Made by a program: the position numbers and the translations under genes. Of a stretch of DNA of 64,000 nucleotides, positions 23,201 to 58,526 are shown piece by piece. The DNA lies in assembly GCA_001724265.1 (NCBI GenBank), contig MEDY01000067.1, positions 1 to 64,000 on the forward strand. The letters run 5' to 3'. The notes beneath the pieces were generated by a model. That model was not told the DNA's origin. It searched no databases and was given only the letters and a program-made list of their open reading frames with translations. This DNA is from Rhizaria sp. SCN 62-66 (taxonomy: Eukaryota). The first letter of the stretch is position 1. The number at the start of each line of letters is the position of its first letter.

Positions 23201-26200
23201 CCCACGGTGGCCGCGGGTGTCCGCGCAGCCGGCGCGGGCTGGGCGGCGAGAAGCGCGCGCACAAAGGCGAGGTGGTACGGTGACGCAGCAAGCGGTGACG
23301 GCGCGGCCGCTCTCTCGCTTCTAGCGTCAACTGAATTTTCATCGCCAGCGACAATGACAGCGGCGTCAGCAGCGAGAGAAACGTCCGCAGCGGCGACGAG
23401 CGCAGCGGCGTCGGCGAGCGTGGCCTCCGCCGCACCAAGCGCGGACGCGGGCGCGGGGGATGCAGTCCCAGCCGCTGCGACGACCGCAGCGGAAGCAGCG
23501 GCGGAAGCGGCCGCGGCAGCCACAGCAGGAGCGGGCGTGACCGTGAGCGCAGGCATGTAACCCTGTGCGAGTCCGAGGCCCGTGCCCGTCGCTGTCGCTG
23601 TGACAGCACCGGCGGCGTCCAGTGCGCGCGCCGCCGCTATGGAGGCTGCGGCAGCCGCAGCGGCGGGCGTGACGAGCTCGATGCGCGCCTCGTCGTCCGC
23701 AGCAGCAGAAGCAGGCTCCTGCTTGACGGCAGCGTCGTCGGTGGGCGCGGCACGTTTGGCGCGGCGCAGCGGCCGCTCGGCGGTCACAACGGTGACAGAC
23801 ACAGGGCACGCGAGGCCGGTCGCGACGAGGCGCGAGGCCGGGAACTGCGCCTGGGCCTGCGCCTGCGCGTGGGCCTGCGCCCGCGCCTGCGCCTGCGCGG
23901 CGTCGGGACCTGTGATCGCGACGGGGGGCGCGATGCCGGCGTGCTGGTGGTGGTGGTGATAGTCACGGCACGCCTGCGAAGAGGCGTCGGCCAGCGCGAG
24001 CGGCAGCGCCGCGGGGCTGTGCGTGGCCGTGGTCACACCTGAGACAGCCGCGAACACGCTCACGACGCCGCTGCCGCCGCTGCCGGACCCGCTGGCGCCG
24101 GCCACGGTGGACGCGGCGCTGGGTGCGGCGGCAGAAGCATCCGCAGCCGCAGACGTAGCGCCAGCGCCCGTCGAAGCATCGGAACCGGCGGAAGATGTGG
24201 TACTGCTCGCGCTAGAGCTACTGCTGCCGCTGCTGCTGGCCGCAGCGGCGGCAGCGGTGGCGGCGATCGCGAGAGCCGCGGCCCCGGAGACAGAGCCCAG
24301 CGCGCTCGCGCCCGCGCCCACGGCGGACTCGCCGTTTGCACCCGCGCCCGCGCTGACGCCGTCGCCGGCAGCCACCGCGAGCGCGAGGCTCACAGTGTCG
24401 AGGGCGCCGCCCGCGGCACCGCTGCTGGCGCTGCCGGAGGACGACGCAACAGAAGCAGGCGCGGTCACCAGCGGGCCGGGAGGAGGGACGGCGCCAGAAA
24501 CAGCGTATCCCGCGCCCGCGGCCGCAGCGGCGAGCGCGATCGCAGTCGGCAGCGGCTGCGTGGTCGCGGCAGCCGGCAGCGAGGTGAGCGTCGCCGTCGC
24601 GGCGAGGGATACAGCCGACGTGGTCGCAGACAGAGGGCAGTATGCGGGAGCGCGCGGGGCGCCGGGCGCAGCGACCACGGGCGCAGCAGCGGAGGCGGCG
24701 CCCGAAGGCAGCGGCGCAAGCGGAACTGCGGCCGCAAGGCCGAACAGCGCTGCCGACGCGGCGTCAGCATAGGGCCCGCTGGGACGGGTCTCACCCTTGG
24801 CCTGCGCCCTCCGCGACACCGCCGCTGCGGGGGGCGCAAGCAGGGGGGCGATTGCGGTGTTGACGGCACCCCAAACTGCGTAGCGGTGGCGGAGGGCGGT
24901 CACCGCGGCGCGCGCGTGGTTGCTGCCTGAGATACCAAGGATCGCGGCGCCGGCGCTCGAGCTAGTGGTCACGCCCGCGGCGGCGGCGGCAGCGGCGGCG
25001 GCGGCGGCGGCGCTCGTGGGCGACGGCAGCGGTGCGGCCGCGCCGGCCGAACCGGCCCCAGCGGCGCCAGTCGGCGTGCGCAGCGATAGCGGGCCGGTGC
25101 CGCTGCCGGCGGTGACTCCGCCTTCTGAGCCCGCGCCCGCGCCGGCGCCCGCACCGGGGCCCAGTACCGCGGCGGCGGCGGCCAGCGCGCGGCGGCGCGA
25201 CGCCCCCGAGCCGCGCGGCGCGGTCGCGGAGACCAGCAGCGCGCCCAGCGGGCCCGCGGCGGCGGCGGCGGCCGCGGCGGCGGCAGCGGGGTCCAGGCTT
25301 CCCACCGCTGATGACGGAGAGGACGAGGAGGCGGGCGACAGCGCCGGCAGGCCGCGACGGCCGGCGGCTGCGGCCGCGTCAGGCGCGGCGAGCAGGAAGT
25401 CAAGCCGCCCCTGCGACAGCAGCGCGGTGAGTGCGCGCGAGCCCGCCCCGGCGGCGGCCGCAGCCGTGCGGCCGCCGCCGGAGGCGACGGTGAACAGTCC
25501 GCCCCATCCGGCCCCGGGGCCCGCAGTCGCAGCGCCGGCAGCGGCGGCCCCGGCGGCGGCCGCAGCAGCGGCAGCGAGCGCGGGCGCGAAGGCCGGATGC
25601 GGTGCCGCGAGCAGCAGCGGGAGCCCGTGCGTGAGGACCGGAGCGGTCTGTGTCAGCCGCAGCAGGTGCGCCGCCAGCGCGCGCGGCGCGTGGTGCGCGA
25701 AGCTCGACAGCAGCGTCAGCACGGCCGAACCGGCGCCCGCGCCAGTTGCGGCGCTCAGCGCGGCCGCCAGCGCAGGGGCGCCAGCGCCCGCGGCGGCTGC
25801 GGCGGCCGCAAGCGTCGCGAAGCGTGGCAGGGGCAGCAGCGGGAACGGTGACGGCGGCGGCGCAGCAGCCGCGGCAGCGGCGGCAGCTGCGGCGGAGGCA
25901 GCGTTCGCCGCAGCGAGCGCAGCAGCGGCCGCAGCGCGGCGCGCGCCAATGGAGTCCGCTGCCGCCCCACCAGTAGGCACGGCGGCGTTCGCGGCGGCAG
26001 CGGCAGCGGAAGCGGCAGCAGCGGCGGCAGCAGCAGCCGCAGCAGCGGAGGTCCCGGTGGTCCCCGTCGCGACCTTGCCAGAAGTCAAGACAGTGCCAGA
26101 GGCGGGGGCAGCGTTCGCCGGCGACCCCAAAGTAAGCGCAGAGCTCCCGTGGCTGTGCGTAGACGCGACGCCGATGTACGCGGCGTCCTGTGCGAGCGGC

Positions 26201-29200
26201 AGCAGCAGCGGGTGCGACGAGGCGAACGCGAGCGCGGCCGCCGTGGCCGCCGCAGCGGCCTCGTCCTGGTCCTCGTCACTCCCGCTGTCAGCCACGTCGT
26301 CGCTGTCGTCGCCCGCCGCGGCGGGGACGGGGACGGGGACGGGCGCGGGCAGCGGCGCGGGCGCCCAGTGGCTGTGCGCGGGGCACAGGTACAAGCACGA
26401 CGTGCTAACCAGCACGGGCTCCTGCTCCGCCGCGGCGTCCGCGGCGGGCTCCTCGGCGTCGGCGGCACCGCGCACGACCAACGCGGTCGACACTGCCGCG
26501 GCGGACTGCGGCGGCGGCAACAGTGCCAGAGGGTGCGCCGGGTGCCCCATATGCGGCTTGACTTGAGCAGCGGACGGCTTACTTTCAGTGGCAGTGCGAG
26601 TGAGCGTGCAGGGCAGCGAAGAGTAAGCGCCCGCAGCGCCGGGCTTGGTGGGGCCCAGCGCGAAGAGCGCGTGCGCGAACAGAGAGTCGCGCGACAGCAG
26701 CGCAGCCTTCCTCTCGCGGGCAGGCGCTGTACTCGCCGTCGGAGTGACTGCTGCAAGCGGCAGCACGCGCGCGACAAGAGCGAACCCGTCTTCATCCGCC
26801 ACGACACCGCTCTCAACCGCCCAGTTACTGGCAGCAGCGGCGATGGCGCTCGCGCCGGCGCTAGTGGGGGTGACGGGGACGAGCTGGCGCGCGGGGACGC
26901 GCCAAGTCTGCAGGGTGACCGGGACGCAGCCGGCCTCTTTGCCGCAGCTCGCGTGCACGACGTGGCGGCACCCGGGGGCCGGGCACGGCGCGGGGCAGCC
27001 CTTGTTGCGGCCGCACAGGTGGCAATACAAGCGCGCGTGGAACGAGCCCTGCAGAGGCAGGTGCGTCAGCGGAGACAGAGTCGGCGCGGTCGGCAGCGGC
27101 GCGCTGAAGCTCGACGCCAGCGTCGCGCATGCGGCGGCGGTCGCGGCCGCAGCGCAGACTGCCTCGGAGTCGATGGGGTCGTCACTCTCCGCAACGGGTG
27201 CGCTGGCAGCGGCCTCGCTCTCGGCGTCTCCGTCCTCCATCTTAATCGCAACAGCAGTCACGCCGGGCTCAGTCTTTACAGTTACGGCGGCCGCCGCGAG
27301 CTCAGCGGTGACCGTGGCGGCGCGCGCGGCAGCCGAGGCAGCGGCGGCAACAACAGACTCGCGCGATCCCAGCACCAACGAGGGGAAATGGTCGTAACTG
27401 AGCGCGAACGAGGGCGATGCCAGAGCCAGTGCGCAGTCGACGTGCGCCCAGCGCAGCGACACATCGTGCGGCTGCAGCGACGGAGTCGCGGCCGCAGCGG
27501 CCTGCGCCGCGGCGCCCGCGGCAGAGCCCGAGGCGCCCGTCGGTGCGGCGGGCACAGCCGTGGCCTCAGTGAGGATCTTAAGCGCGAGCGCAAGCGCGTC
27601 GCCAGTGGTGGCGGCAGCGGTGGCGGACAGCTGCGCCTGTGTGGGCGCAGACGTCACCGAGGCCACGGCGGCCGCAGTGGCTGCAGCGGTTGCGGCAGCG
27701 GCAGCGGCGGGCGTGGGCGCGGTGGGCGGCGACGCAGCAGGCGCGCGCTTGCCGCCGGAAGGCACGAGCGCAGCGGGGCTGCCGGCGGCGATGAGCGCTG
27801 CAGAGGCGGCGGCGGTCGCGACAGCTGTTGCAGCAGAAGCGGCAGCGCGCAGTCCCTTAGTTGAAGCGCGGAGCATGTATGGCGCGACAGTGGGCAGCGT
27901 GGTGGCGAGCTTCAGCGCGCCGCCCGGCGTGGGGCAGAGCGCGCAGGACGCCTCGCGGCACGCGGCGGCGGCGGCCAGAGCGGCGGCGGACGGCGTCGCG
28001 CTCGACGAGCTCGAGCTCGAAGTGCTGGACGTCACAGAGGACGAGGACGATGAGGATGATGAAGAGGAAGACGATGACGACGATGACAAAGTTGTCGCAG
28101 AAGAGCCAGCGCTTGTAGTTGCTGACGACGACTGAGCAAAGCCGGACGAGGACGACGGCACAAGCGTTGTTGTGGCTCCAGCGGCCACCGCAGCAGCAGC
28201 TCCGGGAGTCGCAATTCCGGCTCCCGCAGCCGCAGCAGCGGCCGCAGCGGCGCGCGCCGGCGGAGCAATCAACGCAAGTAGTGGCGACTCCGCAAAAGCA
28301 TCGTCCTCAGCCTCTTCGAGCGCGTCCGCTGCCGCAGCAGTAGCCGCAGCTAGTGCGATACCCGCTGCGTCCGCGGGTCCGGCCGCGGCGGCGAGCGCTG
28401 TCCCATTCGCGATAGACGAGCAGCGCGCGAGGAACTCCCTCCGGCGCTGGAGTGTGAGCGCAAAGAACGCGTCGTTACCCAGCGAAGATGAGCCCAGCTC
28501 GGGGGTGTAGCCAAACTCGGCGCAGACGGTGGCATAGGAAGCCCCGCCCAGCGCGGACGACGCCAGCGAGCGCTCAGGAGGCGGCGGCGGCGGCAGAGCG
28601 GCGGCCGCGGCGGCAGCGGAGGGCGACGGCTCCGCGCGGCGCGCGCTTGAGCGGCGCTCGGCGGGCGGAGTGCTGCCGGTCTTGGCGGGCGCATTGCCGT
28701 CGCCGCCCAGCGCCGAAGACGAGGACGAAGACTCCGAGAGCGTGAGCGCCGCAGTGTGGTTCTGGCCGGGGCCGAGCAGCGCGGGGCCGGCAACGGCGAC
28801 GGCGGCGTTGTGCGCGGACTCAAGAGCCTGCAGAGCGCGCGCCCGCGTCACCACGGCGTCGGCCGCGGTCACCGCGGCGTCAGCGGCCAGCAGCGCGCGC
28901 GGCGCCGCACCGCACGCGACCAGGCATGGCGCGCAGAACCAACTGGGAAAGGAAGCACCGGCCAGAGGTGGCAGACCTGCGGCCGCAGCGGCGCGCGCGA
29001 GCACGGGTACGCGCGGTGAAGAAGTGGCGGCGTTGCCATTGCTGCTAGAAGTGGAGTCAGTGCTGCTTTTGGTACTCGGAATGTACTGCAGCGGCGGGTT
29101 GAGGTGCGGCGACTGCGGGATACCGTAGCAAAGCTGGTGCACGCAGAGGCCGCAGCGCGCGCACGACACCAAATGGTTGTGGCTCAGCGGCACGCGGCCA

Positions 29201-30414
29201 GTCTGCTGCGCCAGAATCTGCGTTTGCAGCTGCTGCTGCTGAGTCGGAGTCAGCGAGAACCCTTGCGACGCTACCGCAGCCGTGGCAGCCAAAGCAACGG
29301 AGGCCGCAGCAGCCGTAGCAGCAGCGAGCGAGAACGGGGCGTTGCCGCCCAACCCGGCGACTGTGAGCGCGGTGGTGGAAACGGTCAACGCACCAGCAGC
29401 GGTCGCGCTTGCGCTGCAGCCTGCAGGGGGGAGAGCCGGTGGCACGTGGCCGCTGCCGCAGACAGCGCAGGCAGCGCCGGCAACATCGACGGTCGGTGCG
29501 CCCCACATCGACACAGAGGAGGCGACAACCGGCGCGGAGTGCGACGCTTGCGCCGCCGTGGTACTGCTGTTGCTGCTGCTGCCACTGCCGCTGCTTGCAG
29601 CGTCTGACGGGAAGGAACACAGCGCGAACAAGCCGTCGCCGGCGCCTGCGCCGGAGCCCGAAGCGGCACCGGCACCCGCGCTAGCACCCGCACCCGCGCT
29701 GCCGGTCGCGCCCGCAGCGCCGCCGGCCGCGGTCCCGACGCCGGCGCCAGAACCCGTGGCGGCCGAGCCCGACGGTGCAGGCGCGGCGCCGCGCGGGTGC
29801 CGGCCAGCGCGCGCGCCGCGGCGGGCCGAGGTCGAGGCCTCGTTGGCCAGCACCCACTGGCGGCCGCTCAGCAGCGCCAGCGCGAGCCGCGCGCGTGGCG
29901 GCAGCGGGACTGCGGCGGACGCGGCGGCGGCCAGCGCGGCGGCAGCGGCGGTCGCGGCAGCGGGGGCGGGTGAGGCGGCCGGGGTCGGGACTGTAATCTG
30001 GGGCAGCCACGGCGCCAGCGCGGATGTCAGCGAAGCGTGCGCAATGTGCGAGGCAGTTGCAGGTGCAGTGGGGATCGTTGCAGCAGAGCTGGAGCTGCTA
30101 GTGCTGGGGGTGGTTTGCGGTGCAGCTTCGGCAGAGGCGCCGCGGGGACCGCGCGCTCTTGATCCAGATCCGGCGGAGGCCACTGGTGCGCTCGCGGGCG
30201 GTGCAGAGGCAGGCGTCATGGCCGCGGGAGCCTTCGCCTTGGACTTGCCCGCGGCACCGGTGGCGGGTGCAGTGGGGGGTACAGAGGCTGCGGCGGGACG
30301 CGTTGTGGGCGGCGGCGACGGGGAAGGTCCAGTCGCATTGCGAGAACTACCGCGGCGCGTAGGCGGCGCGGCAGAAGATGCAGCCGCTGCAGAACGGGTC
30401 GGGGCCGAAGGCAT
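5240..30414 (-). CDS. Giant (~8352 aa) PHD-finger chromatin protein: three PHD/Zn-knuckle/extended-PHD (PZP-like) modules, an Ada3-like segment, poly-Q and AT-hook; exons 30414-10570 and 10453-5240
   Basis: Three repeats of the series CxxC...CxxCxxxVHxxCYG...WxCxxC...CxLCP..G...WxHxxC...CxxC...HxxC...CxxH. Removing intron 10454-10569 joins LIKCTDFKCN to LVFHPIC in frame and completes the third ePHD. Ends at TAA. The frame is also open for 32 codons upstream of the ATG to an acceptor at 30511, so the true N-terminus is uncertain. Confidence 0.88.
7025..7184 (-). repeat. CAG/CAA poly-Gln and CCG poly-Pro tract within the giant CDS
   Basis: Translates as QQQQQQQQPQQQPQPPPPPPPQQQQQQMAYSQQQLAYQQQQQQYQMQQMQQQ. 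Confidence 0.9.
10454..10569 (-). other. Spliceosomal intron, 116 nt, phase 0
   Basis: GTACGT...TTTTTAG, AT-rich, contains the TGA that ends the 6636-aa ORF. Splicing restores the frame and the C..C...FHPxC motif. Confidence 0.92.
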
Positions 30415-37800: not shown

Positions 37801-37925
37801 CGGTCGAGTTTATGTACGACCGGCAGGTCGAGTTGATCGAACAGGTCGCCGCAGCGGCGCCAGTGCCCGCAGTCGCGGCTGCGCATGGTAGCGAGGCCGA
37901 CGTTGCGGATATGACGCCGATGTAA
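31812..37925 (+). CDS. Unknown ~2037-aa protein with a long N-terminal coiled coil (Ala/Glu/Arg-rich) and low-complexity C-half; one in-frame TAG near the N-terminus
   Basis: The 1999-aa ORF 31926-37925 ends at TAA. An in-frame ATG at 31812 lies at the AT/GC boundary directly after ...CACACAG C. It is separated from the ORF only by TAG 31902-31904. Helical heptad-like sequence spans about 32360-34230. Confidence 0.8.
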
Positions 37926-38183: not shown

Positions 38184-41100
38184 TCACTAAAAGCGCGCAA
38201 AGTGCGCCGCGGTGGCACGCGGCATCACGAGCGACGCGTGCGCCATCGCGCCCAGCCCCGCCCCGCCCAGCATAGCGCCGCCGTGAAGCCCAAGGCCAAC
38301 GCCACCGAGGGCAACGTCCCCCAGAGCTGCGCCGCCGCCGATCATGGCCGCGCCGGCGCCGGTGACATCACCAGCGGCGGCGGCACTGGCAGCGGCTGCA
38401 GCGGCAGCGGCGGCTTGCGGGAGCACAAGCCCGGGGATCAGCGCGTTGGCCGCGCGGGCCAGCACGCTCGCGAGCGCGCGCGCAACGATCCCGCTGAGCC
38501 CGCCGCCGTTGCGGTGGCGCCGGCCCTGCAGCCCGGCGGCAGCGTCTGCGGCGTCGTCGCCGTCGTCGCCGTCATCCGCGCCCGCGCCGCCACAGCAGAG
38601 CGCGGCCAGCAGTCCGCGGCTGCGGCGCGAGGCGCGGGTGACGCGGATGACCACGGCGGCGCGCGTGGCGTTGTTGATCACCTCAGAGGCGAGAGCGACC
38701 GAGTCGACGAGGCGCATGGCGAGCGCGTCACGGCCGAGCCAGACCTCGCCCGTGGTAATCTGCGGCAGTAGCGGAAGCAGCACGGGTCGGAACAACGCGA
38801 CGTGGTCCGAGAAGGCCGCGTGGATCGTCTCCAGCTCCTCCTGCAGCTTCGCGCGGCCCTCGGGCGTAACCTCGCCCGTCGTCGTCACCGTGCGCTTGTA
38901 GCGGCCCGCCGTAAACTGCAGCATGTCGACCTCATGACGCTTGAGCACCTTGGAGATGTTGGGGATCTGCGCGATCACGCCCACCGAGCTGTCGCAGAAA
39001 GAAAGAAAAAAGTTCGAATCGTGAGAAATGGGTTTAAAAAAAATGAAATTGAGCAACATCGAACAAACAAAAGAAAAATTACTCGTGAATCATAAAGTGT
39101 GATGATAATAGCCACGTACCCGACGTAAGCAAAAGGCGCGGCGACGATGCGGTCGGCGACGGCGGCCATCATGTACCCACCACTGGCAGCGACCTTATCG
39201 ACGCACACAGTGAGGTGGATGCCGTGCTCGCGGAGACGCGCGAGCTCGTAGGCAGCGCGGCCGTAGTGCGGGACGGCGCCGCCGCCGGACTCAAGGCAGA
39301 GCACGACCTCATCCTTGCCGGGCACACACGTCTGCACGGCGAAGTCGACGAACTTGGCCAGCAGATCCGTCCCCGAAGCGAAGATGTCGCCGCTCCAGTC
39401 GAAGACGAGCACGCGCGCGGGCCGCAGCGCCGCCTCCCAGAGCCGCGCCAGCTGCCCAGGGTGGCACTCGGGCCCCAGCGCGCTCAGCTGCGCGGCAAAG
39501 TTCTCCGTCAGCGCGGCCGTCTGCACCGCGCGCGCGGCGTCCCAGACCGGCGCGCGCGCCGCGAGCTCGTCGTGCAGCAGCGCCGCCGCGTCCGCCGCGA
39601 AGTCGCCCCGCGCGTCCTTGCTGGAGCCCTTCTTGGCTGCCTTGGCCTTAGAGACGGCCTTGTCGTCAGCCTTGCCTCTGTTGCTGTCGGCGGCCTTCTT
39701 GCTGCCCTTCTCGGAGGGCTTGGAGCTCTTGAAGACGGTCTTGCTGGTGGGCGTGGTGAGCGCGACCGTGGGCGCGGCGGTCATCGCGCCCAGGAACGGC
39801 ACCACGCGGCCCGACGGCAGCGCGCGCTCAGCACTCGCACGCGCGGCTGCGCTGCCGTCGGCGTTCTGAGTGGCAGAGTCGTGCGCATCGCTCTTCTTGG
39901 CGTCGGCGTTCACGCTGGCGGTGGTGAACGGGGACTGGGTGGCGCGAATGATGTGGCTCAGAGTCGCACTGAGCGCCAGCGCGGCGGTGCGCATCTTGGC
40001 CAGGCCACCGTCAGCAGCAGCAGCAGCGGTCTCGACGTCCGTCTCAGCGGCAGACTCGGTGCCAGTGGCGGCGGCGACGACGGGGGGCGTGCTGACGTCA
40101 GCGGCGTCGACCTCGGCCTCGGCCTCGGACTCTGCGTCGGACGCAGCGGCGACGGCGACGGCGGCGGCTACGGTCGACCCGCGGGCGGTGCGCGCACGCA
40201 CGCCGGCCTTGGCCTTATTTGCCGCGGCCACAGCGACGGACTGGCGGCGACCACGAGCAGCCGCCACGGCAGCCTTTCCGCGGCCCTTCTGTTCATCCTC
40301 CTCTTCTTCCTCGTTGTCATCGTTCTCACTGCCGCTGCCATCGCTGTTGTTATCCCCAGCAGCGGCGGCAGCGGCAGCGACAGGCTGACCGCGGATCACA
40401 GCGGCTGGGACCGCGCCGCCAGCGGGGGCGGTGCGCGTGAGTCCTGCGAGCTCCGTGGGGAACGCGCGGCCCGCGGCCGGGTACTCAAGAGTCCCGCCCG
40501 TCGCGCGCGCGGCTTCGGCGTCCGCGGCGGCAATGCCCGCGAGCAGCGTCGCCAGCGAGGCTTCGTCGCGACCGTACCCGCCGTTGAGGACCTCGAAGTC
40601 GAACGTGGTCTCCGCGGCAGCGTCAGCGCCGGCGGCCGCGGCAGCGGTCGAGCGCGGAGGACCGCGCGCGCCGCCACGCTTGCCGCCACCACCGCCGCCG
40701 CAGCAGCAGAGCCAACTGGAGCCGGAGCTGGAGCCGGCAGCGGCGTCGGCGCGGGCGCCCGCGGCGGCGGCGGGGGAGCTGCGGTACATCGCGGAGCGGG
40801 CGAGGCGCGGGGCCGCGAGCGCGAGCAGGACGCCGGCGTAGAGCAGCAGCGAGGCAGAGCCATCCCAGGTAATGTGCCAGTCCCAGAGGTAGCTGTGCAG
40901 GAAGGCGCGGTAGCGCAGCGCGAGGCCGGCGAGCAGCAGCAACAGCCCCAGCTGCGTTGCTCGCGAATAGGCGCTCGCGGCGGCGGCAGGGGAGGGCGCC
41001 GCGCGCCACGGCAGCGGCACGTGCGGGATGAACGGCGGCAGTGGCGCGCGGGAAGGGATGCCAACGGGGAAGAGGTCGCGCGCGGCAGGTGACGGGGCGA

Positions 41101-41696: not shown

Positions 41697-41831
41697 CCAC
41701 TCCAATCTCACACCCTTGTCACGCTGATCTTTGTCACATGAACTGCCCAGCATCACCTCACATAGAAAGCAACAAATTGACATTGTTCGCGAAGACATAA
41801 GAGCTGTTAGGACCCTGTAGGCGAGTGCTTA

Positions 41832-44800
41832 ATGTCTGACGAGTCCGGGCTCCGCGCCCGCGGCCGTGCTCGCAACCGCGCAGCCACGACCGATCTCGCC
41901 GACTCAGGTGACCACGGCGTTCCTGACGTCGCGCATACAGCAGACCCGACAACTATCGGCACATCATACGGCCCCACAGCCCCCGCCGGCGCTCTTGCGC
42001 CCTCTATCACTGTCTCATCCTCGTCCTCGCTGCTGGCGCCCGGCACGGCGGCCCCGGAGATCGAGCTCCTCACCCGCGGCGGCAGCGCCCGCGGCAGCGC
42101 TGGCGCCGACCCCGACCTCCGCATCCCCGCCGCGGGCCCGCGGCCGTCGTTCTCTCTCCCCGCGGGGCCCGGCGACGGCGCCGCTGCGGCGCTGCTTGTG
42201 CTGCCGGGCCGCAACAGCGGCAGCGGCGGCGGTGGCGGCGCGGGCAACCTGCGCCTCTCGGTGACGCCGCAGCCGCCGATGCGGACGCGCTCATTCCAGA
42301 CAGGCGCCACGAACGCCGCGGACTCCGGGGCCACTGCGGCGAGCGGCTACGATAGCCATGGCGACGACCACGCCGGCGTGCACGACGACGACGACGACGA
42401 TAACGAGTACAGTCCGGACGTCCCCGCGCCGCTGCTGCCGGCGACGAGGCTGCGACGCGCGCCCTCCACCTCCTCGGCCACGTCCGCGCGCATGCGCCGC
42501 CGCGCGGGGGCCGGGGCTGGCGCCGGCATATCCACGGCAGCGCTGCTCGACGCCGCCGCCGACGCCGCCGTGGCCGCGCCGGGCACCGCGTCGTCGGCGG
42601 TGCTCTCGGCCGCGGCCGCGCAGCGCGCGCGGCGCCGCGAGCGCGGGCTGCAGTCGGCGGTGAAGCGCGCGGCGGCCCGCGAGCTGCGCGCGCGCGAGTC
42701 CGCGCTGGGCTCGATGCGCGGCGTGGGCTGGACCGTGGTGTTGGGGCTTGCGCTTGTGGTGCTAGCGGAGCAGCTGTACGCCGTGCTCGACGCCCAGAGC
42801 ACGGCCTCCAAGTGGCTCTTCATGTACCTCGTCGTCATCGTCGTCTTCTACCTCTTCTCCTCGCCCTTCCGCGCTGGCGGCGCTGAGGAGGCGCGCGCCC
42901 CGACCCGCGGCGCGGCCGCGCGCGACGGACTCGGCCTAGGGCTCGGCGGCGGCTCCGGCGACGGACTGGGCGGGCTCACCGGCAACGGCACCAGCACCAG
43001 CGGCGGCTCGGGCTCCTCCGCGGGCGCCGGTTCCGGGTCCGGGGCCAGCGCCGACAGCGACGACGGCCCGGACGCGGCGTCCGGCGGCGGCGGCAGCGGT
43101 CTGCCGCGGCCGAGCTACTTCTCCGTGTCGACAGTGTACGTGGTGTGGCTGCTGCTGGCAACCGTCTACCACCTCCCGCCACTCAGCGCGCTCGGCATCG
43201 ACCTGCGCATCTCTATCTCTGTGTTCCTCACGATTCTCATCGCGACCTTCACGGCGCTGCTGCTGTTCCGCGGTGTCTACGCGCTCGCCGGCCTGGCTGC
43301 GCACGCCACGGCCCCGCGCTGGGCGGCCGGCAACTTCGCGCCGCAGCACCGCCTCAAGGGCCCTTTCAGCGTTGCTGAGGTCTGGCTGGCCGCCAAGAAC
43401 GCGCTGCTCATCTCGCTCGCGTGCTGCATCGCCTACGCGCACTGCGGCAACGAGGCTGAGGCGCTCGCGGGCTCCGTCGCCTCCGCTGTCGTCACCTCCG
43501 CCGCCACCGCCGCCACCGCCGCCACAGCCTCGGCGACGGGGGTCGGCGCCGCGCTCGCGGCCGAAACGCACGCCGCCACTGCCGCTGCTGCTGCCAAGTA
43601 CGAGTCGCCGACCGCTGCGTCTCAGTATACGCAGCCGCAGCCTGCGCTGCTACCCAACGGCACGCTCGCGGGCTCGGCGCTGCCGCCCTTCTCGCCCGTC
43701 ACGCCCGTTGCGCGCGTGGTCGCGGCCGACCGCGGCGACGGCGAGGACGACGAGGGCCTGCTGGAGCTGCTGGGCGCGCTCTGGGAGTCCACCGCGCACG
43801 CCGTCACCGAGACCGTGCTAGGCACCGCCTCAGACGCCCCCGCGACCGTCTCGTCCAAGTTCGGCGCTGCCAGTATGGCGTCACCGCGGGCGTGGGGCGC
43901 GGCGGCGTGGCGCGCGATGCAGTGGCGGCCGTGGCGCTCGCAGGCACTACTGGCCGGGCTGCGGTCCAACGTGTGCACGACGTGGTTTGTGTCGCTCGAG
44001 GCCAGCGCGTACCATCCTCTGTACCAGGCGCTCGCGCTCTACCAGGAGGGCCGCGCGGGCTCGCCGCAGCGGCGTCCGCTGGCCGGCGTGCAGACGGACA
44101 AGCAGCGGTGCATGCACCGGCTCGCGGCCGCCCCGCCGGCCTGCGCCAAGAGCAGCGGCTCAAAGAGCAGCGGCCGCGACCGCAGAGTCGATGCGGCTGA
44201 GAGCGGCGAGCTGGACTGGGTCGACGCACTGCGCGCGGCCGCCGGCGCCGCAGTGAACGAGGTGTTCTGGCCGCAGCCGTTCAGCTCGCTCCCGCGCCAT
44301 GCGCCGCCTGCTGCGTCGCGCGCCGCCTCGTGCCGCGACCAGCCGGCCTCGGCCGAGTCAGCGCCAGCGACCGCGCGCGCGCAGAGCGCCACCCAGCGTC
44401 ACGACGAGAACCTGACTCGCCACGCCGACGCGGACGCGGACGCGGACGAGAGCGCTCATGCCGCCGCCGGTGCCGCCCTCTCGGGGGCCATCCCGGACCC
44501 TCTGACGGCCGCGGTCGCCACAGCCCGTGCGCTGGGCCGCACCACCGTGTCCGTCGCTACCTGGGTCTTCCCCTCGCTGGCGGCGTCCGGCGCGCCCGCC
44601 AACACCGACGCGGCTACTGAAGCGCACGGCGCTGTTGAGCTCGACACCGACCCGTGCCCCGCCCCGTCGCGCGACGGCGGTTTCGACAGCGCGTTCTCCA
44701 TCGACGACGGCGAAGATATGGTCGACGCGCCGCCGCCGCAGATCTCCGCGATCTGGACGCTGTGGATGACGCTGGTGATGATCTACATTGTCAACTACTC

Positions 44801-47800
44801 CTTCGAGCGCTCCGCAGTGTGGTCACTGGCCTTCATGGACCCCGACGCCGCTGCTGCGGCGCTCGCGGCCGTCGCGGCAGCCAACGCGGCCGCGGCCACC
44901 GCTGCGGCCACCGCCGCCGCGGCTGCGGCGGCAGCGGGCGGCAAGGATCTGCCGATCCTCTTCTCGGGCGCCTACGCCGGTCTCGTCGACGCGCGCACCA
45001 AGGGCACTGCCGCTGCCGCAGCTGCAACAGCGTCTACGGGCAGCGCAGACAGCACCGCCGACGCTGACAACATCAGCGCCAATAACGGCACTGTGTACGG
45101 CAAGGCGGCGCGGCCCTCTGCGACTGCACCGTCGACGGCCGCGGCCGTGGCTGCTGCGGCCGCCGGTCTGGCGGCGCCGTCGGAGGCCGCGAGCGCCGGT
45201 GAGCAGCAGTTGCAGCAGCTGCATCAGCAGCAAAAGCTCCGGCGCGCGCAGCAGGCCGCTGCTTCCGCTGCCGCGATGGTCGCGGTCAGGGACTTCCTGG
45301 CCTTCACGCACCCGCAGTACGCCGCAGCCGCTGCTGCTGCCGCCGCCGCCGCGACCTCTGCGAACGCGATCGGCGCGCACAGCAGCGGCGGGCACACCCG
45401 TGGCCAGTCCGCGCTCGAGTCACTGTTTAACGACCCCCGCGGCGACGCCAGCAGCAGCGTCAGTGGCAGCAACAGCGGCGGCGTGGAGTCGGCCTCGGCC
45501 ACGCCCGCAGACGGCGCGGCCGGTTGTCCGCAGCCGGGGTCCGCGCGCGGCTCGCTGACGTCACCGTCGTCGGTGCTGCGCACTCTGGCCAGCTCCACGG
45601 CCGCGCGCCAGCCGCTGGCGTCGCTCTTCTCGCAGCTCGACGAGGAAACGCCCGGCGAAACGTCCGGCGCGCGCGGCGGCGCGGGCACCGGCGCCTCGCC
45701 CGCATCGCCGCCCTCGTTGCCGGACGCTGAGTCTGCGAGCAGGGGCGGTGCTGTTGTCGCGCGCGCGATGCCGCCGTGCCGCCTGACGCCGCCGCCGTCG
45801 ACGCACGGCCTCGCGCTGTCGCCGCTGGGCTACGTGCTTGGCGCCAAAACGCGCGTGCGCACAGCGTTCGACCACCCCGGCGCGCGCCCACGCTTCCTGC
45901 CCATGGTGTCGTGGTTTGCGGTCACTTCTGCCGACATCTGGCAGTCGGTCTTTGACATCATCGTCTCGTTCAAGCTCTTCTTGGGGCGTTTTGACCGCCG
46001 CTCCATGCAGGCCGCGCTCGCGCCAGCCGCCGCCAGCGCCGCTCACGCGCTGGTAAAGGCGCGCGTCCCGCCCGCGACGGCCGCCGCGCTCTCGCACGCC
46101 GAGAGCGCCGCCGCCGCCGCCGCGCTGGCCTCGGCGCTCGCGCTCGCGCACGGCAACGCGGCCTCGGCACGCGCGGCAGCCGTGGCGCACGCCATCTCGG
46201 CCGTCGGCACCGCGCTGCGCGCCGCGTCCTCGGCCTCGGAGCGGCTGCAGCTGCAGTCGGCCGCCACGGGCGCTGCGGCGTCGGCGCACTCGACCGCTCT
46301 CGCGCTGCTCACCGCGCGCGTCGCCGCGGCCGAAGCCGCGAGTTCGGGCCGCTAGGCCGCTGCGGTCGCGCGCGGCGCCGCCGCCGAGGCGCAGGCCGAG
46401 GCCGCGGTGCGCCGCGCGAAGGCCGCGGAGCGCAAGCAGCTCCGGCGCGCGCAAAGGGCCGAGCGCGAGGCTGCCGCCGCCAAGGACGGCGCCGCCAAGG
46501 TTGCCGCGGCGCTGCTCCAGCTCGCGCAGGCTGTCGCCGCTCCGGGTGGAAACCGCCGCGCCGAGGCCTCTGTGAAGGCTGCTGAGGCCGCGGTGGCCGC
46601 CACGACCGCCTCTGCTGCGCCGCACAGTGACACTGAGCCCAGCTCTTCGTCTGAGTCTGAAGCAGAGGCGGAGGCTAAGGCAGAGACCACTGTGGCGGCG
46701 CAGCCTGCGCCTTCGAGCACGCAGAGTCAGGGCCAGCTGCAGTCGCTGTCGCAGTCGTCGCAGCCCCAGCCGCAGCAGGGGCATGCAATGTTCCAGTCTC
46801 TGTCGCTGACGAGCCTGCCCGGGGCTGCGAGCGCCGACAGCCTGTCGTCGAGCGGTGATGCGACTGCAGCGCACATGCTGCTGGCGCCGCCCGTGGCCCC
46901 GCTGACGATGCCCATGCCTTCGCCGCCGTCGGTGACCGCGACGCCGCTCTTTGTGCCGCTGCAGACGCTGCCGCCGCTGACGCCCGCGTCGGGCCTGCCG
47001 ATCGTGGGCGTGGGCTCTGCGCAGACGCAGCCTGTGGCCTCGGTGGCGGGGATGCCGATGGGCACTGCGGGCTTCTCGCTGTCTGCGCTTTCGATGCCCT
47101 CGCTCGCCACCACCAACACTGTCGGCAGCAATCTTGCGACAGTGCCCGTCGTCGCTAATGCTGCTGTTGTCCAGAACTCGCTGCCGCTGCATGCGCCCGG
47201 GCCGCTGTTCAACATTCCCAGCACCGGCACTAGCGCCGGCACTGGCGTCAGCTCCGGTACCGGCAGCAACTCCAACCCCAACACCATCACCGGCGTGGGC
47301 GCGATCGCAGGCGCGTTGGCGAACAGCGGCAATGGCGTGGCTAGCGATACTGGTTACTCCTTGACCGCGTCTTCCGTCGCGTCGTCAGCGGCGGCAGCGG
47401 CAGCGGCGGCGGGAGCGTCGTCCGCGGCTGCGCTTGCGATGTTCGCGGCGCACATGAGCGCCACGCCCGCCGCGTCCCCCTCGCATGGCCCCGCAGTCGC
47501 GCCCGCGTCTATCCCGGCGCTGCCGTCGAACAACACTACTTCGTCGACGCTGTCTGCGCCCGCGGCCGCGGACGAGGCCGAGGCCGCGCTGGCAGCGCTG
47601 CACGCGCGCCTTGCCCAGATCGACGCCGAGGAGGCCGCCGCGGTCGCCGCCGCCTTCGCCGAGGCCGAGGCCGCTGCGGCTCAGACGCGCGGCGAGCCAT
47701 GCGCGGCCGAGGCGGCGCGGCTCGCGCAAGTTGCCGCCAAGGTCGCGTTCCGTGCTCAGACCGAGGGCGCGCTGTTCACGCACTTTGCCGAGGTTGACGA

Positions 47801-50800
47801 CGCCGAGCGCGCCGCGGCTGAGACGGCGGCCTGCGTCGACGCCGCCGCACGCGGAGAGCCCGCGCCCGCGGACGCTTTGGCCTACGCGCGCGCGGCTGCC
47901 GACGCCGCGGGCGTGGGCCGCCGGTTTGCCGACGGCGCCGAAGGCACCGTAATCGCTACGGGCCGCAGTCTCGGCGGCGGCAGCAGCGCGCGCGCCGACG
48001 AGGACAGCGCCGGCGGCGCGTGCGACTTTTGGTTCGACTGGTTCGCCGACACCGGTGACGGCGGCGACGCGACGTACACAGTGGCCTGGCTTAGTGCGCA
48101 GCCGTACCTGGACCTGGAGGTGCCGGGCCCGCTGGAGACGGCGGCGCCGCTGCCGCTGGAGCTGCTGCGCTTCCGCCGCGACCGCGAGCGCGAGGACCGG
48201 AAGCGCGGCTACCACGGCGGCATGCCCGCCACGCCCGCTGCCGTCGCCGCGGCCGCTGCGGCGCGCGCCGCGGCTGCCAAGGCCGCCGCAGAGGCGGCGC
48301 CCAACAACGCCACTCTCGCTGCGGCTGCTGCGGACGCCGCGGCTGCCGCTGCGGCGGCGGCGGAGGCCGTGCCCGCGGGTTACGGTCTCGGGCTCGGTCG
48401 GCGCAAGCTCCAGCAACAACAGCAACAACAACAGCTCCTGCAGCAGCAACAGCAACAGCAGCAGGGCGTGCGTGCCGGTACCGGTGCGAAGGCGCCCGTG
48501 CGTGCGTCGCTGACCGGCGGGCTGCTGCACCCCTGGTCGTCCTCGGCCGCGGGCGCCGCTGTCGCCGCCGCCGCGGGCGCGAGCGCCGCCGCTGTGGCGG
48601 GGCGCGGCGCGTGGGGCAGCCCCGTGCTGCCGCTGTCGACCGGCGGCCCGCGCCGCGCCCCGCTGCAGCAGCGCCAGGCACGCGCGTCAGGCCGCAGCGG
48701 CGCGCGGCGCGTGGCCTACGGCGCGACGCTCAGCGCGGGCGCCGAGGCCGCTGCGATGGCGGCGGCGGTGGGCCGCGAGCGCGAGCGCGAGCGCGAAGGC
48801 GGCGCTCTCGACGCTGAGACAGGCAATGTTTTCGTGAGCACGGCGGCGAGGCCGAGTATCGTCGCCGCAGCCGCCACGGTCACCGCGGCCGCTGCTGCCG
48901 CCGCCGCTGCGGGCGACGTCAGAGAGAGCGCAAGCGCCCGAGACGAAGACGACGAGCAGGAACAGGAGCAGGAGCAGGACGCCAGCGGCGACCAGTACCC
49001 GTCCCCCGCGCGAGACGGACCGGCTTCTCCCCGCGGCGGCCTCGCCGCGCTGCAGATGCGCCGCTCGCGGTCCTCGATCACGACGCCGCGTCCCAGCCCG
49101 CCGGCCACCTGCCGCGGCGCCGCGCTCGCCGCGCTCGCCGCCTCGCCGTGCTCTCCCTCCCCCGCAGCGGCCGACGCGAGCAGCAGTTATGTGGCGCTGG
49201 AGGCCGAGGCTCCGGCGACGCCCGTCACCGTCACCGAGACTACCAGCACGGGTGCGCAGGGCCTCTTCGCGTCTGCGCTTGCACGCGCGCCTGCCGCGGC
49301 CGCTGCGAGCGTGAAGCGCATGCTCACCGCCACGCGCAAGCCGCTGAAGCAGCTGCGCAAGCGCTCCGCGGCCGCCGTGCGCGCGGCGCGCCGTCTGTTC
49401 GCTGCGGCCGCGGGCCATCCCGCCCGCACTGGCTCCGGCGCCGGCGCCCGCATGGTGCACCCCGGCGCCGGCACCGGTGCTGACGGGGCTGCTGTCGACG
49501 CAGGCGCTGGTGATGAGGGGATGTTGCGCGAAGTGGGCGACTACCAGTACGACGAAGATGAGGAGGAAGACGAGTTCGACGAGGACGAGGACGATGACCA
49601 GCACGCTGGTGACGGCATCGACGGTGCTGGTGCTCATGCTGACGAAGCTGGTGCTATCAGTGCTGACCTGGACGCTGAGGATGCGCTCTACTCCAACGCT
49701 GACGCCGAGGCCGACGCGGATGCTGAAGCTGCGGCCGAGGCGGAGGCGGAAGCTGAGGCGCAGGATGAGCTTGAGTCGGGGTCAGAGACCGGGGATGATG
49801 ATAGCGCTTCTGGTGATGACTCAGATGGCGCCGTTCCCGCTGAGACCACGGCGGACTCCCTCGCACTGCCCGGTGGAAATGCGTCCATTCCCCATAGCGC
49901 CACGGCCCCCGCGCATACCGGCGTCGCCGTGCCCTCGGTCACGCTCACGGTCACCGCGCCTGGCGACGCCGACAACGGCAGCCACCGCCACACCGGTGAC
50001 AGCAACAGCGGTGCCGCAGTGCGCCGGTCACCGTCGCGCTCCTCGCGCGCGCGCTCGCGCACCGCCGCTGCGTCCGAGACCGTGGGCACGCCTGACGGCC
50101 GGAGGCTCCCGTCGGCTTCGCTGTCCGCGACGGGCGGGCACAAAAGTGGCAGCAGCCGGCGCAGTCACAGCATCACCAAGGGCCCTGCCGCCCTGCTGGC
50201 ACCTTCCGCCGTGACCGCCGCCGCCTCGGTCGCCACACCCTCGCGCCCCGCCGCAGGAGCACGCGCGCCCGCTGTGGGCACGTCCTCCAACGCCACGACC
50301 ACGGCGACGACGACTGTGGCGTCATCAGCGAGCCGCGTGTCGCGCCGCGACCTGCCCCACGTGCGCCTGCCGCGGCCGCGCGTGCTGGTGATCGGCGGCG
50401 ACATGGCGTACCCCACGCCCAACGCGGAGACGTTCGACGAGCGGCTGCTGCTGCCGTTCGAGTACGCGCTGCCGCCGCCCGCGTGGCGGTCCTTCGCGAG
50501 CGCGGCCGTGCGCAAGCCTGAGCTGCCGCGCGGCGTGACGCTGCGCGCCTACCACGGCCCGCAGGCCTTCGTGCTGCCGGGCAACCACGACTGGTTCGAC
50601 GGGCTCGACACGTTCGCGCGCTATTTCATGCACCGGTCCTGGTTCGCCGGCTGGCTGCTGCCGCAGACGCGGTCCTACTTCGCGCTGCGGCTGCCGTGCA
50701 AGTGGTGGATGTTTGCCGTGGACCTGTCGCTGACGCTGGACATCGACCCCGCTCAGTACCAGTTCTTCGCCGACACGATCGAGCGCGAGATGGGTCCCGA

Positions 50801-53800
50801 CGACCGCGTGATTGTGTGCACGCATGAGCCCACGTGGCTGCTGGCGTGGTACGAGGGCGCCTCGGAGCCGCGCTCGCTGCTCGAGCTCATCGAAGCCAAG
50901 CTCCGCGGCCGCTGCGTCATGCGAGTTGCTGGCGACGTGCACCACTACTGCCGCCACTCGGCTGCCGTCGCCGACCTTGCCGAAGAGCGCAAGGACGCCG
51001 CCGCCGCGCTGCTCGAGGCCACCGGCGCGCTTCCGCCGCTGCCCAGCGCCACGGCCGGCGCGACCGCTGTGGCGGCGGCGGCGGCGGCGGCGTTTCCTGA
51101 TCCCACAAGCCCGCTGTCGCAGGCGCGGGCCGTGGCCGCCGACTCCAAGACCGGCGCTGCGGGGCTCAACAAGCCCCTGCGCGGCGCACGCACGGCTGCT
51201 GCTGCCACCGCGGCCGCGGAGGCCGAGAGCGCGCGCGCGCGCAAGCTGGCGGATCGCGAGGCCGCGGCGGGCATGACGTTCCGCGGGTGGCTGCGGCGGC
51301 TGTGGCGCGCGGCCACGCTGCGTGGCTGGGGCGAGACTGACGTGCTCGAGACCGTGGGCGCGGTCGCCGACGCCGAGGCCGAGGCTGACGCGGTCGCTGG
51401 CGCCAACGGCCTCGGCGACGACGACGCTGACGGCGACGGCGACGGCGAGACGTCGCCGCTCGCTAACGCGACCATCACCAGCGAAGACGACGACAACGAT
51501 GAGGCCGACGCCGACGCGGGCTTCACACCCGTGAACCCCAAGAGCCCGACCGCGCCGCAGCAGCTGCAGCAGCAGCAGCAGCAGCAGCAGCAGAGCAAGC
51601 CGGCGCAGAGTCAAGAGGAGGCGCGCCGCGAGCGCGAGCGCACTCAGCTGCGCGGTCTGACCGGCCCCCGCCACTTAATCGTCTCAGGCGGTGGCGGCGC
51701 GTTCCTGCACCCGACGCACCCGTTCTCCGCGCCCCTGCGCGGCTACAACGGGCGCGTCTACCCGCACGCCCGGTCCTACCCGTCGGCCGAGGTGTCTCGC
51801 AAGATCACCTTCGGCAACCTCATCAAATTCCGAAAGAAGAACTGGCGCTTCGACGTGCTCGGTGGCGTCATGTACTTCGTGCTCATTATCTCCGTGCTGC
51901 CGCTGTGCGGGCTGTCGGACTACCTGCACGCGCCGCCGCTGTCGTTCATCCCCACATTCTCGGCCTCGGTGCTGACGTCGGCGACGTCGACTGCGCTCAA
52001 GCACTCGCTCAGCGTCATCAAGACCTTCACCACCGAGGCGCCCAACGCCGCCGCCGCCGCTGCGGCCGCGAGCCCGGCTGGCGTTGCTGGAAGTGGCATG
52101 CCGCCGCTGATGGCCACGCCCGCGTCCACTGCGTCGTCGGCCCCCACTGTGGGTGCGAACGAGGTCCCGGAGATGCCGACGTACATGTCCATGCTCAACG
52201 CCTCCTGCCCCGCGTTCCCCCCGTTCCTCTTCTCGCCGGGCCCGCACGCCGACGCAGCAGTCGCGAACGCGGAGATTGGCAACAGTGGGTTTGGCGTGGC
52301 CGCGTCGGCGCTCGCACTACAGCGCACGTCCCCGCTCTCTCTGGTCCCCGCGCCGTCCCCGGCCGTGCCTGCGTGGGCCCTGCTTGCGCCCCCGCTGACC
52401 TTGTTGTACTACGTGATCCTGCTGTGCGCGCGCCACGTCACCGTCGTTGTCGCCATCGTCGCCTCCATGGTCGTCAACGGCGGCGCGTCGCTCATCGCGC
52501 TCGCGTTCTTTTCCGTCATCATCTTCTGCTTCTGCCCCTCGTCGCTGCCGTGGCGCCGCCGCGCGCCGCTGGCGGCCGCGCACTTGCTGTTGCACGTGTT
52601 CTTCGCGATCACGCTGGCCATGATCTTCGAGGTCGCGCTCGAGGTCTCGGCCAAGGCTGGCCTCGTCGGCAAGGCAGGGCTGCACGCGCTGTACGCCGCG
52701 TACGCGGAGCAGGAAGCGATGCACTTCCCCGACCCTAACGACATCCGCGGCACCATCGCCTCGCTCACGTTCGGACTCTACCCGGCGTGCATCCGCTGGG
52801 CCATGACACTCTTCGACGTGCTCGAGTACTCGGCCTTCTTTCGCGCGCAGGTCTGCCAGGCGTGCGGCAACTTCGCGTCCTTTTCGAGCCTTGCGACGTT
52901 GGCGTACTACGCGTCATTCTTCGTCTACTTCTGGGTTCTCGTCACGCCCGTCTTCGCTTTCATCATCGGCTGTTACCTATACGTCGCGCTTAATTACTGC
53001 AACGTGCACTGGGACGAAGGTTTCTCGTCGCTGCGCATCTCGCACTTCAAATCCTTCCTGCGCTGCCGCATCACACCGCAAGGCGACCTGCACGTTTTCT
53101 GCGTCGGCATTGACCGCGTGCCCAAGCTTTGGCGCCCCGAGCCGCGCTGGCGCCTGCTGCCGCGCCAGATTGCCGCCATCTTCTCGCGCCGCGCCACCGC
53201 CGCCGCAGCAGCAGCAGCCGCGGCCGCGGGGCGCGGGCAGGCAGGCGCCGGCAGCGGCGCTGGCGGCAGCTGCCCCGTTGCGGCCGCCTCCGCCGTCGTC
53301 GCCGCGCAGGCGCAGGCCAAGGCCAAGGCGAGCCGGCTGCAGCAGCTGCGCGTGATGGCCTCGCGCTTCATCGACGTCACCTCCACGGTTACCGTCAAGG
53401 CGCTGGGCGCGATTGCGGGCGTGGCCGTCGCGCCGCGCCGCTCGCCCGCCGCGGCCAGCGCAGCAGCAGCCGCAGCCGCAGCCGCCGCGGCGACCGCAGC
53501 AAGAGCCGCGGCGCAGCAAGAGCCGCAGAGCGCTGAGGCCGCGCGCGCCGAGGCCGCGGCTGCCGCGGTGGACGCGCTGGCGCTATCAAGCCTGTTCGAC
53601 GACGCGCACCTGCTGGCGCACCCCGAGTGGGGCGCCAGCGACGCGGCCTGGTTGCGGCTCAGCTTCCGCGACGCGCACCCGTCGCGCTGGCGGCCTGATG
53701 AGCTGTTCCGCCCGCGCATCGTCGACTACTTCTGCGTGCGCGCCGCGGACCTGCCCTCGTCACAGGGCACTGCCGCGGCCGCGCTCTCGCAGGGACAGCA

Positions 53801-53834
53801 ACAGGCGCCACAGAGGTTCACGGCTGCTAAGTGA
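41832..53834 (+). CDS. Multi-pass membrane calcineurin-like metallophosphoesterase (~4000 aa), one in-frame TAG at 46353
   Basis: ORFs 41832-46355 and 46407-53834 are in the same frame, separated only by TAG. Metallophosphoesterase motifs: FADTGDGG (48042), IGGDMAYP (50391), PGNHDWFDG (50577), THEP, AGDVHHY, VSGGGGAFLHPTH. Hydrophobic TM-like blocks flank the catalytic part. Ends at TGA. Confidence 0.9.
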
Positions 53835-55527: not shown

Positions 55528-55741
55528 TCGAGGTCATTGTGGACTCTACATAGGGTGTTATGATACTGCCGTATTTATTTGTGACTCTACATAGTTCTTT
55601 GTTTTCTATATTTAACCCACATATCGCCTGACGGTTGTTTGTCCTCTGTTCAGCCTCTGGAAGATCTCACCTCATGCCTCCTCGTTTACCCTCTTTTTGC
55701 CCCTTGCTTGTTGCCTTTTCCCCACAGTGTAGCCGCATAAA

Positions 55742-58049: not shown

Positions 58050-58526
58050 GCCTGTGGGGGGACAACGCGGCAAGCGGGTTGTTGTCGGCGCAGAGGAGCG
58101 AAGGGAAGCAGAAGGCAATAGAGAAGAAAGGCATAGAAGGCGAAAGTGAGTGCAACGACAGGCAGCTGAGAGAGGTCAATACAGGACAGGGCGTGGTTGC
58201 GCAAGAATGTAAAAAGTACATATGAATTTCCACGTCACATTGATTTTGTAAAATGCTATAGAATTTCTATTGGATACCACTATTATGTCCTGGGACAATC
58301 GAGAAATGCACTCCGCAAACAAATTCCTTTTCGACCAGTCCGACTTTTTCGGCCCTGCTGGCTTTGTGTCCATCCACATCACAGCATTTTCCAGTGCGCT
58401 CTGCTGATTTCTGTTGTCAAGTCAACGTATAATTGCACGTCGGTATACTTTCGATTGTATACAGCTCTGTGCTTTATCCGCAGCTCTATTAACGGTTGTC
58501 TGGCACTTATACCACCCTTCACATCA

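Follow-up and report, generated by a model that had tools for sequence, protein, structure and literature searches.

We analysed a 64,000-nucleotide (nt) stretch of DNA deposited as Rhizaria sp. SCN 62-66 (assembly GCA_001724265.1, contig MEDY01000067.1, positions 1 to 64,000 of the forward strand; hereafter the window), in which a gene with the features of a membrane metallophosphoesterase carries a TAG codon within its reading frame. An earlier note on this DNA had placed the TAG between the membrane domain and the catalytic domain of the protein and had argued that the codon has to be translated. The letters it quoted, TCG GGC CGC TAG GCC GCT GCG, were confirmed, with the TAG at 46353-46355. 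The gene is laid out as follows.

41832..46352, plus strand: N-terminal part of the gene, 1507 codons; membrane-domain blocks with Ala/Gly/Ser-rich insertions between them
46353..46355, plus strand: in-frame TAG, 115 codons past the last conserved N-terminal block and 565 codons ahead of the first catalytic motif
46356..53834, plus strand: C-terminal part of the gene, 2492 codons plus TGA; split metallophosphoesterase domain, followed by GNLIKFRKKNWRFD and by a membrane region at the C terminus that includes HWDEGFSSLRI

A TAG codon within a continuous reading frame

From the ATG at 41832 to the TGA at 53832 the frame runs for about 4000 codons, or about 12 kilobases (kb), and the TAG at 46353 is its sole stop. 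No other stop occurs in this frame over 41808-53832, while the two other plus-strand frames carry about 50-60 stops each; one stop in 4000 codons against 50-60 per sister frame indicates that the frame is open beyond chance. The guanine-cytosine (GC) content by codon position keeps its phase across the TAG, with a third-position GC content (GC3) of 0.93 in the 300 nt before it and 0.83-0.84 after it, and overall GC is 0.81 within 150 nt on either side. The absence of an in-frame ATG for more than 100 codons after the TAG, which the earlier note had pointed out, was borne out, the next one lying 145 codons downstream at 46788. Likewise, there is no AT-rich sequence or spacer near the TAG: the minimum GC of 60-nt windows across 45001-48060 is 0.50. 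On the 3' side of the terminal TGA, GC is down to 0.32, and the frame meets its next stop after 20 codons.

Opposite the phosphoesterase gene, the minus strand holds open reading frames (ORFs) of 380-540 codons (45561-47192, 47385-48530 and others). We rejected these long antisense ORFs as genes and regard them as by-products of GC3-rich coding, codon position 1 on the antisense strand being 85-90% GC.

Relatives of the two halves of the gene

Motif searches located every motif quoted in the earlier note, at the places implied there, on both sides of the TAG. Together with the two conserved blocks that flank the codon, they are distributed as follows.

42810 (KWLFMY), 43167 (YHLP), 43194 (GIDLR) and 43422 (CCIAYAHCGN), plus strand: upstream motifs
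45894 (FLPMVSW) and 45978 (FLGRFDRR), plus strand: upstream motifs nearest the TAG
45885..46010, plus strand: last conserved block ahead of the TAG; residues 1352-1393 of the N half, 55-66% identity to relatives
48003..48122, plus strand: first conserved block past the TAG; residues about 550-589 of the C half, including DTGDGGD
48048 (DTGDGGD), 50391 (IGGDMAYP), 50580 (GNHDW), 50820 (THEP) and 50931 (GDVHHY), plus strand: downstream catalytic motifs
51813 (GNLIKFRKKNWRFD) and 53007 (HWDEGFSSLRI), plus strand: further downstream motifs

All catalytic motifs thus lie downstream of the TAG and are intact, following one another in the order D-x-G-D, G-D-x-x-Y, G-N-H-D, H-E and G-D-x-H. In Pfam, the C part matched PF00149 (Metallophos) at 18.8 bits, below the cut-off of 21.5, because an insertion splits the domain; the N part had no Pfam family match, and NCBIfam held no model for the phosphoesterase family.

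The halves were then compared separately with protein collections, as the earlier note had proposed. A C-part query of 961 residues, reaching from the catalytic core to the C-terminal membrane region, matched 210 proteins, of which the best 120 were examined. Most of these 120 are plant proteins of about 1010 amino acids (aa) named 'calcineurin-like (metallo)phosphoesterase', with E values around 1e-150, and 118 of them also match the N half in BLASTP, always collinearly. In the reverse direction, residues 290-1420 of the N half were searched with HMMER against 1.84 billion representatives. Among the 120 proteins matched, 12 have at least 700 aa; one is the N half itself (P0122, 1507 aa, 100% identity), and all 11 others match the C half too, in order. 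The closest of the N-part relatives, P0123, is 3103 aa long. The plant-type membrane calcineurin-like phosphoesterase family named in the earlier note is therefore real, with matches on both sides of the TAG, and Atlas searches recovered it as well, though with no taxon of use. A scan of prokaryote genome contigs gave no relative.

Alignment to the Arabidopsis protein P0045 (1013 aa) illustrates the arrangement. Residues 429-540 and 1352-1393 of the N half align to residues 92-188 and 316-357 of P0045, and residues 550-589, 1336-1536, 1772-1863 and 2084-2255 of the C half align to residues 375-414, 419-620, 630-720 and 783-952. The catalytic core is 54% identical to P0045 over 202 aa, and the plant relatives bear PF00149. 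More generally, the catalytic and C-terminal regions past the TAG share 54-58% identity with plant and other relatives, and 78% with P0002; conservation at this level argues that the C part is under constraint. Both of the blocks that flank the TAG are present in 137 of the 238 relatives retrieved, where they lie 15-128 residues apart (median 24), always with the N-terminal block before the C-terminal one. The same two blocks are 671 residues apart in the window protein, and the TAG falls 115 residues into this interval. A second insertion, of about 775 residues, separates the DTGD and GGD motifs.

The collinear matches and the block spacing in relatives indicate that the halves are parts of one family member; judged from these alignments, both belong to one polypeptide in the relatives. 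By the same comparison, the TAG is placed in an Ala-rich insertion that is specific to this lineage. The window protein resembles the plant proteins of about 1010 aa in its collinear conserved blocks, which comprise an N-terminal membrane domain, the catalytic motifs and a C-terminal membrane region, in this order. It differs from them in being four times longer, by way of low-complexity insertions, and in being interrupted by the TAG. A search across the linker and the TAG among proteins of 647-2000 aa returned only the gene's own N half, and with it no residue opposite the TAG.

P0002, the closest C-part relative (78% identity in the catalytic core; source contig of 4,639 nt), is predicted to begin immediately ahead of the GGD motif, at a codon other than ATG that was translated as M. 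This suggests that a stop or an intron breaks its frame farther upstream, too. As to function, AT4G11800 and AT4G23000, which we take to be the Arabidopsis locus names of family members, returned only two expression papers in a literature search, with no functional study found.

Introns of the window and the region around the TAG

Five introns were identified in the window from frame changes: one in the gene for an S49 (SppA-type) peptidase (at about 38990-39119), one in BRX1, two in the gene at 58528-60651 and one in a giant minus-strand ORF pair. They are about 115-165 nt long, have a GC content of 0.32-0.45 and a GTRCG donor (GTACG or GTGCG), and end in a tract of 70-80% pyrimidines followed by AG. 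An intron that would remove the TAG at 46353 was looked for, and none of the window's intron type is present around the codon. The 1500 nt upstream of it contain just three GTRCG sites. GTRCG...CAG pairs that span the TAG and have a length divisible by three (3n) number 21; their GC content is 0.74-0.77, and their 3' ends have 33-63% pyrimidines. All 21 start at 45317 or 45855, upstream of FLPMVSW, and would thus delete this conserved block. From these sequence features, a non-consensus intron over the TAG also appears unlikely.

Other in-frame TAG codons

Five further in-frame TAGs were found in the window, in two other long open frames that have no homology support.

1988..1990, plus strand: first TAG of ORF 1031-4966, a frame with 0 TAA and 0 TGA in 1311 codons
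2327..2329, plus strand: second TAG of ORF 1031-4966, closing a Gln run
2375..2377, plus strand: third TAG of ORF 1031-4966
2978..2980, plus strand: fourth TAG of ORF 1031-4966, followed by 661 open codons up to a TAA
63126..63128, plus strand: TAG of the ORF from 62328 to the window end, between two Gln codons

The frames were cut at TAA and TGA, so that these two codons are missing from their interior by construction. The other five frames over the 1031-4966 stretch contain 11-37 TAA and TGA codons; the ORF that starts at 62328 has 557 codons with one TAG and no TAA or TGA, against 7-30 in the other frames. We considered whether either ORF could be an antisense artefact and rejected this, the codon-aligned opposite frames carrying 25 and 13 stops, respectively. 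Neither gene shows a frameshift or a stop other than TAG. ORF 1031-4966 is of low complexity, rich in Ser, Pro, Ala and Gln, with a weaker GC3 bias than the other genes and no Pfam family. The AT-rich spacer upstream of it contains a run of about 15 C at about 735-750.

Across the six longest coding frames (16,225 codons) this makes six in-frame TAGs, a UAG frequency of about 0.4 per 1000 codons. GC within 150 nt of each of the six is 0.64-0.81. The codons directly 3' of them are GCC, AGC, CCA, TCC, CGT and CAA, with no common downstream motif. The distribution is uneven, with one TAG in the 4000 codons of the phosphoesterase gene and five in the two genes whose codon bias is weakest, which together have 1868 codons. 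In these two genes CAA accounts for 34% and 60% of the Gln codons, as against 10-17% in the other long genes. The uneven spread fits a sense codon that is not preferred. Two of the six TAGs (2327 and 63126) stand in Gln runs, a weak hint that TAG encodes Gln.

A possible seventh TAG, not included in the six, is found at 31902, between an ATG at 31812 and the ATG at 31926. The gene at 31926-37925 may have an N-terminal extension that begins at ATG 31812; GC rises just past an acceptor-like CACACAG at about 31803-31809.

Gene ends

Ten gene ends were counted in the window, with TAA at seven, TGA at two and TAG at one; the TGA at 10504 lies in an intron and was left out of this count. TAA is thus the commonest terminator despite a coding GC3 of about 0.85. 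The one gene end that uses TAG is the following.

38184..38189, minus strand: end of the S49 peptidase gene, TAG followed in tandem by TGA

An unbacked TAG occurs at none of the ten gene ends. Past the six in-frame TAGs, the next 90 nt have a GC content of 0.69-0.86 and the next TAA or TGA is 290-2492 codons away, whereas past the ten gene ends the corresponding values are 0.26-0.59 and 0-81 codons. Both measures separate the two groups completely (chance of 1 in 8008 counted by site and 1 in 286 counted by gene), and this, rather than the lack of internal TAA and TGA, is the informative contrast.

UAG as a probable rare sense codon

The open frame, the membership of both halves in one protein, the lack of intron-like sequence, the recurrence of in-frame TAGs and the AT-rich sequence that follows TAA and TGA together argue that TAG is decoded. 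We consider it probable that in this genome UAG is translated, though seldom used, and that its stops are UAA and UGA. The earlier proposal of a translated TAG stands in so far as the halves form one protein in relatives and no consensus intron is present; the decoding itself we infer. On this reading, the frame at 41832-53834 would be a single gene for a predicted polytopic membrane metallophosphoesterase of roughly 4000 residues, a member of the family of plant proteins of about 1010 aa that has been expanded by Ala-rich insertions, with the TAG inside one of them. The TAG at 46353 would be decoded as an amino acid because the organism would use UAG as a rare sense codon. Decoding could proceed through a UAG-reading transfer RNA (tRNA) together with a weakened recognition of UAG by the release factor eRF1, both of which have been proposed for other UAG-sense lineages. 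The phosphoesterase gene is a good anchor for such a claim, as relatives across plants and protists show its halves as one protein. If the claim is true, the public gene predictions for this genome would break off wherever a TAG occurs. Such a truncation is suggested by P0122, which consists of the N half alone and indicates that gene calling with the standard code cut the phosphoesterase gene at the TAG.

Several observations weigh against a sense UAG. The N half is stored in the public protein collection as a complete protein of 1507 aa (P0122; four contigs, the longest of 124,639 nt), and a product begun at the ATG at 46788 would keep every catalytic motif. TAG is very rare, with none in a PHD-finger gene of about 8,350 codons and none in a gene of 1999 codons, and its uneven spread would also fit a relaxed constraint on the two genes that hold five of the six. 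None of the six TAGs is at a conserved, alignable position. The occurrence of TAG only, never of TGA or TAA, is a weak argument by itself once mutational opportunity is counted: 63% of the single-base paths to a stop lead to TAG in the GC3-rich genes, so that random nonsense substitution would give six TAGs out of six with P ~0.06. A sample of ten gene ends cannot establish that TAG is never a terminator, and the TAG of the S49 peptidase gene may be its true end. Finally, ARAGORN found no tRNA gene of any kind in the 64-kb window, and eRF1 is absent from it.

Alternative explanations

Among the alternatives, the one that survives best, although we hold it to be unlikely, is that TAG is still a stop and is read through at some sites or partially, either as a codon of dual meaning or by programmed readthrough. 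The rarity of TAG would suit this, and the S49 peptidase gene, with a TGA directly behind its TAG, has the arrangement in which a leaky stop would be backed up. A C directly after the stop codon is a weak termination context in eukaryotes, and C is the base after the TAG at three of the six internal sites. As in known programmed stop-codon readthrough, the stop lies inside a continuous coding frame. Unlike there, however, the six sites have no downstream context in common and one gene has four such codons, for which readthrough at low efficiency would give almost no full-length product. Moreover, no gene of the window ends at an unbacked TAG.

It is less probable still that the TAG is a real nonsense mutation, which would make the gene a recent pseudogene or have it yield a truncated N-terminal product, with or without a separate C-terminal product from the ATG at 46788. 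That this ATG stands ahead of all catalytic motifs, that the N half is stored as a stand-alone protein and that TAG is the likeliest nonsense outcome in GC3-rich genes would all agree with it. Yet the 12-kb frame has no frameshift or further stop, its codon bias is the same past the TAG, and the C part is strongly conserved. Nor do the halves have an AT-rich spacer or promoter-like gap between them, the minimum GC there being 0.50 as compared with 0.26-0.59 past every gene end. This explanation would further need hits by TAG alone in three of about 11 genes within 64 kb, four of them in one gene, and not one insertion or deletion.

We judge it very unlikely that the TAG is removed or altered in the RNA, whether as part of an atypical GC-rich intron or through U-to-C editing. 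GT..AG pairs that span the TAG are plentiful (3125, of which 1111 have a 3n length), and the linker is not conserved, so that its partial loss could be harmless. However, the introns of the window are AT-rich with GTRCG donors, whereas the GC-rich TAG-spanning candidates would take the FLPMVSW block with them, and the GC3 phase is continuous through the TAG. We know of no precedent for nuclear U-to-C editing.

Least probable of all is a sequencing or assembly error that miscalled a sense codon as TAG: a single base change would be enough and high-GC, low-complexity sequence is hard to sequence, but frames of 4000, 6636 and 1999 codons without any frameshift speak for an accurate assembly, six independent errors would all have had to give TAG without a shared sequence context, and the identical N-half protein recurs on four contigs.

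Affinity of the window

BRX1 was used to place the window. Among the matches listed for its exon 2, the gene's own protein came first, followed by unnamed relatives at 88, 78, 72, 71 and 68% identity. The best named matches among those listed were Rhizaria, namely Plasmodiophora and Spongospora (61%) and two chlorarachniophytes (57-58%), with plants and fungi behind them (50-56%). A tree was built from 21 rows picked from the 120 listed matches, namely the named ones and the closest unnamed ones. In this tree, the window falls into a well-supported clade with six unnamed (environmental or unannotated) sequences and inside no named group. The window is from a eukaryote, possibly a rhizarian, whose introns and spacers are AT-rich and whose exons have an extremely high GC3.

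Building on a probable sense UAG, we put forward only tentatively, at somewhat less than even weight, that UAG became a sense codon independently in an undescribed or unrecognised lineage of GC-rich protists, where UAA and UGA were retained as stops and UAG is still very rare and concentrated in weakly biased genes. If true, this would be a natural snapshot of the early re-population of a captured stop codon. A very GC-rich lineage with scarce sense UAG would bear on how stop codons are captured and refilled.

Comparison with known UAG-sense codes

Nuclear codes in which UAG alone has been reassigned are rare; the literature drawn on here describes them in a single rhizarian, a single fornicate, one genus of green algae and a few ciliates (PMC5304391, PMC11687900). 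They depart from the usual pattern, in which UAA and UAG are reassigned jointly. A sense UAG in the window would likely be a new member of this known UAG-only type, alongside exLh, Iotanema, Scotinosphaera and some ciliates.

In exLh, an uncultured sainouroid rhizarian, UAG encodes Leu, while termination is left to UAA and UGA (Panek et al. 2017, PMC5304391). That study reports 384 UAGs in 71 genes, which terminate with UAA (56) or UGA (15) and never with UAG; UAG is scarcest in ribosomal protein genes, a class with typically high expression and strong codon bias (PMC5304391). The window would be alike in having UAG alone as sense, with TAA (7) and TGA (2) as terminators, and its UAA-rich terminator usage resembles that given for exLh and Guttulinopsis in the same study (PMC5304391). 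The nearest named BRX1 matches of the window are Rhizaria, too. It differs in the frequency of UAG, which is high in exLh and amounts to six in about 16,000 codons here, and in the amino acid: Leu was shown at conserved positions in exLh, whereas two sites in the window hint at Gln.

For the fornicate Iotanema spirale, the same study describes that UAG encodes Gln, that UAA and UGA are kept as stops and that UAG is scarce (PMC5304391). The reassignment of UAG alone with scarce UAG would be common to both, and the two TAGs in Gln runs would be consistent with Gln. Iotanema is, however, an unrelated anaerobic flagellate, and there is no sign that the window comes from a fornicate. Scotinosphaera reads UAG as Ser, and phyllopharyngean ciliates and Protocruzia read it as Leu or Gln, according to a further report (PMC11687900). 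There, too, UAG is decoupled from UAA; these organisms, however, are green algae or ciliates, whereas the window has very GC-rich exons and AT-rich introns with GTRCG donors. The BRX1 of the window did not group with the sampled green algae. Among further published reports, no GC-rich, non-ciliate case of a sense UAG was found.

Other genes and composition of the window

GC is 0.70-0.79 in the genes of the window and 0.51-0.61 in some 2-kb windows. The giant minus-strand ORFs at 30414..10504 and 10408..5240 form one gene of about 8,350 codons, joined by an AT-rich intron at about 10569..10455 (GTACGT...TTTTAG). Several matches to PHD and PHD-like zinc fingers were found in it, and its GC content is flat across the codon positions (0.73/0.70/0.72), unlike that of its neighbours. 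Rfam gave no family in the window.

The gene at 55742-56566 (plus strand, 274 codons) opens with a signal-peptide-like stretch and continues with long acidic repeats of Glu/Asp-Ala; it has no real family match. A long ORF on the opposite strand at 55667-56632 was set aside as an antisense shadow of this gene. The minus-strand gene at 57516-58175 encodes a protein with a ribosomal L23 domain, which looks mitochondrial rather than cytosolic, and ends in TAA.

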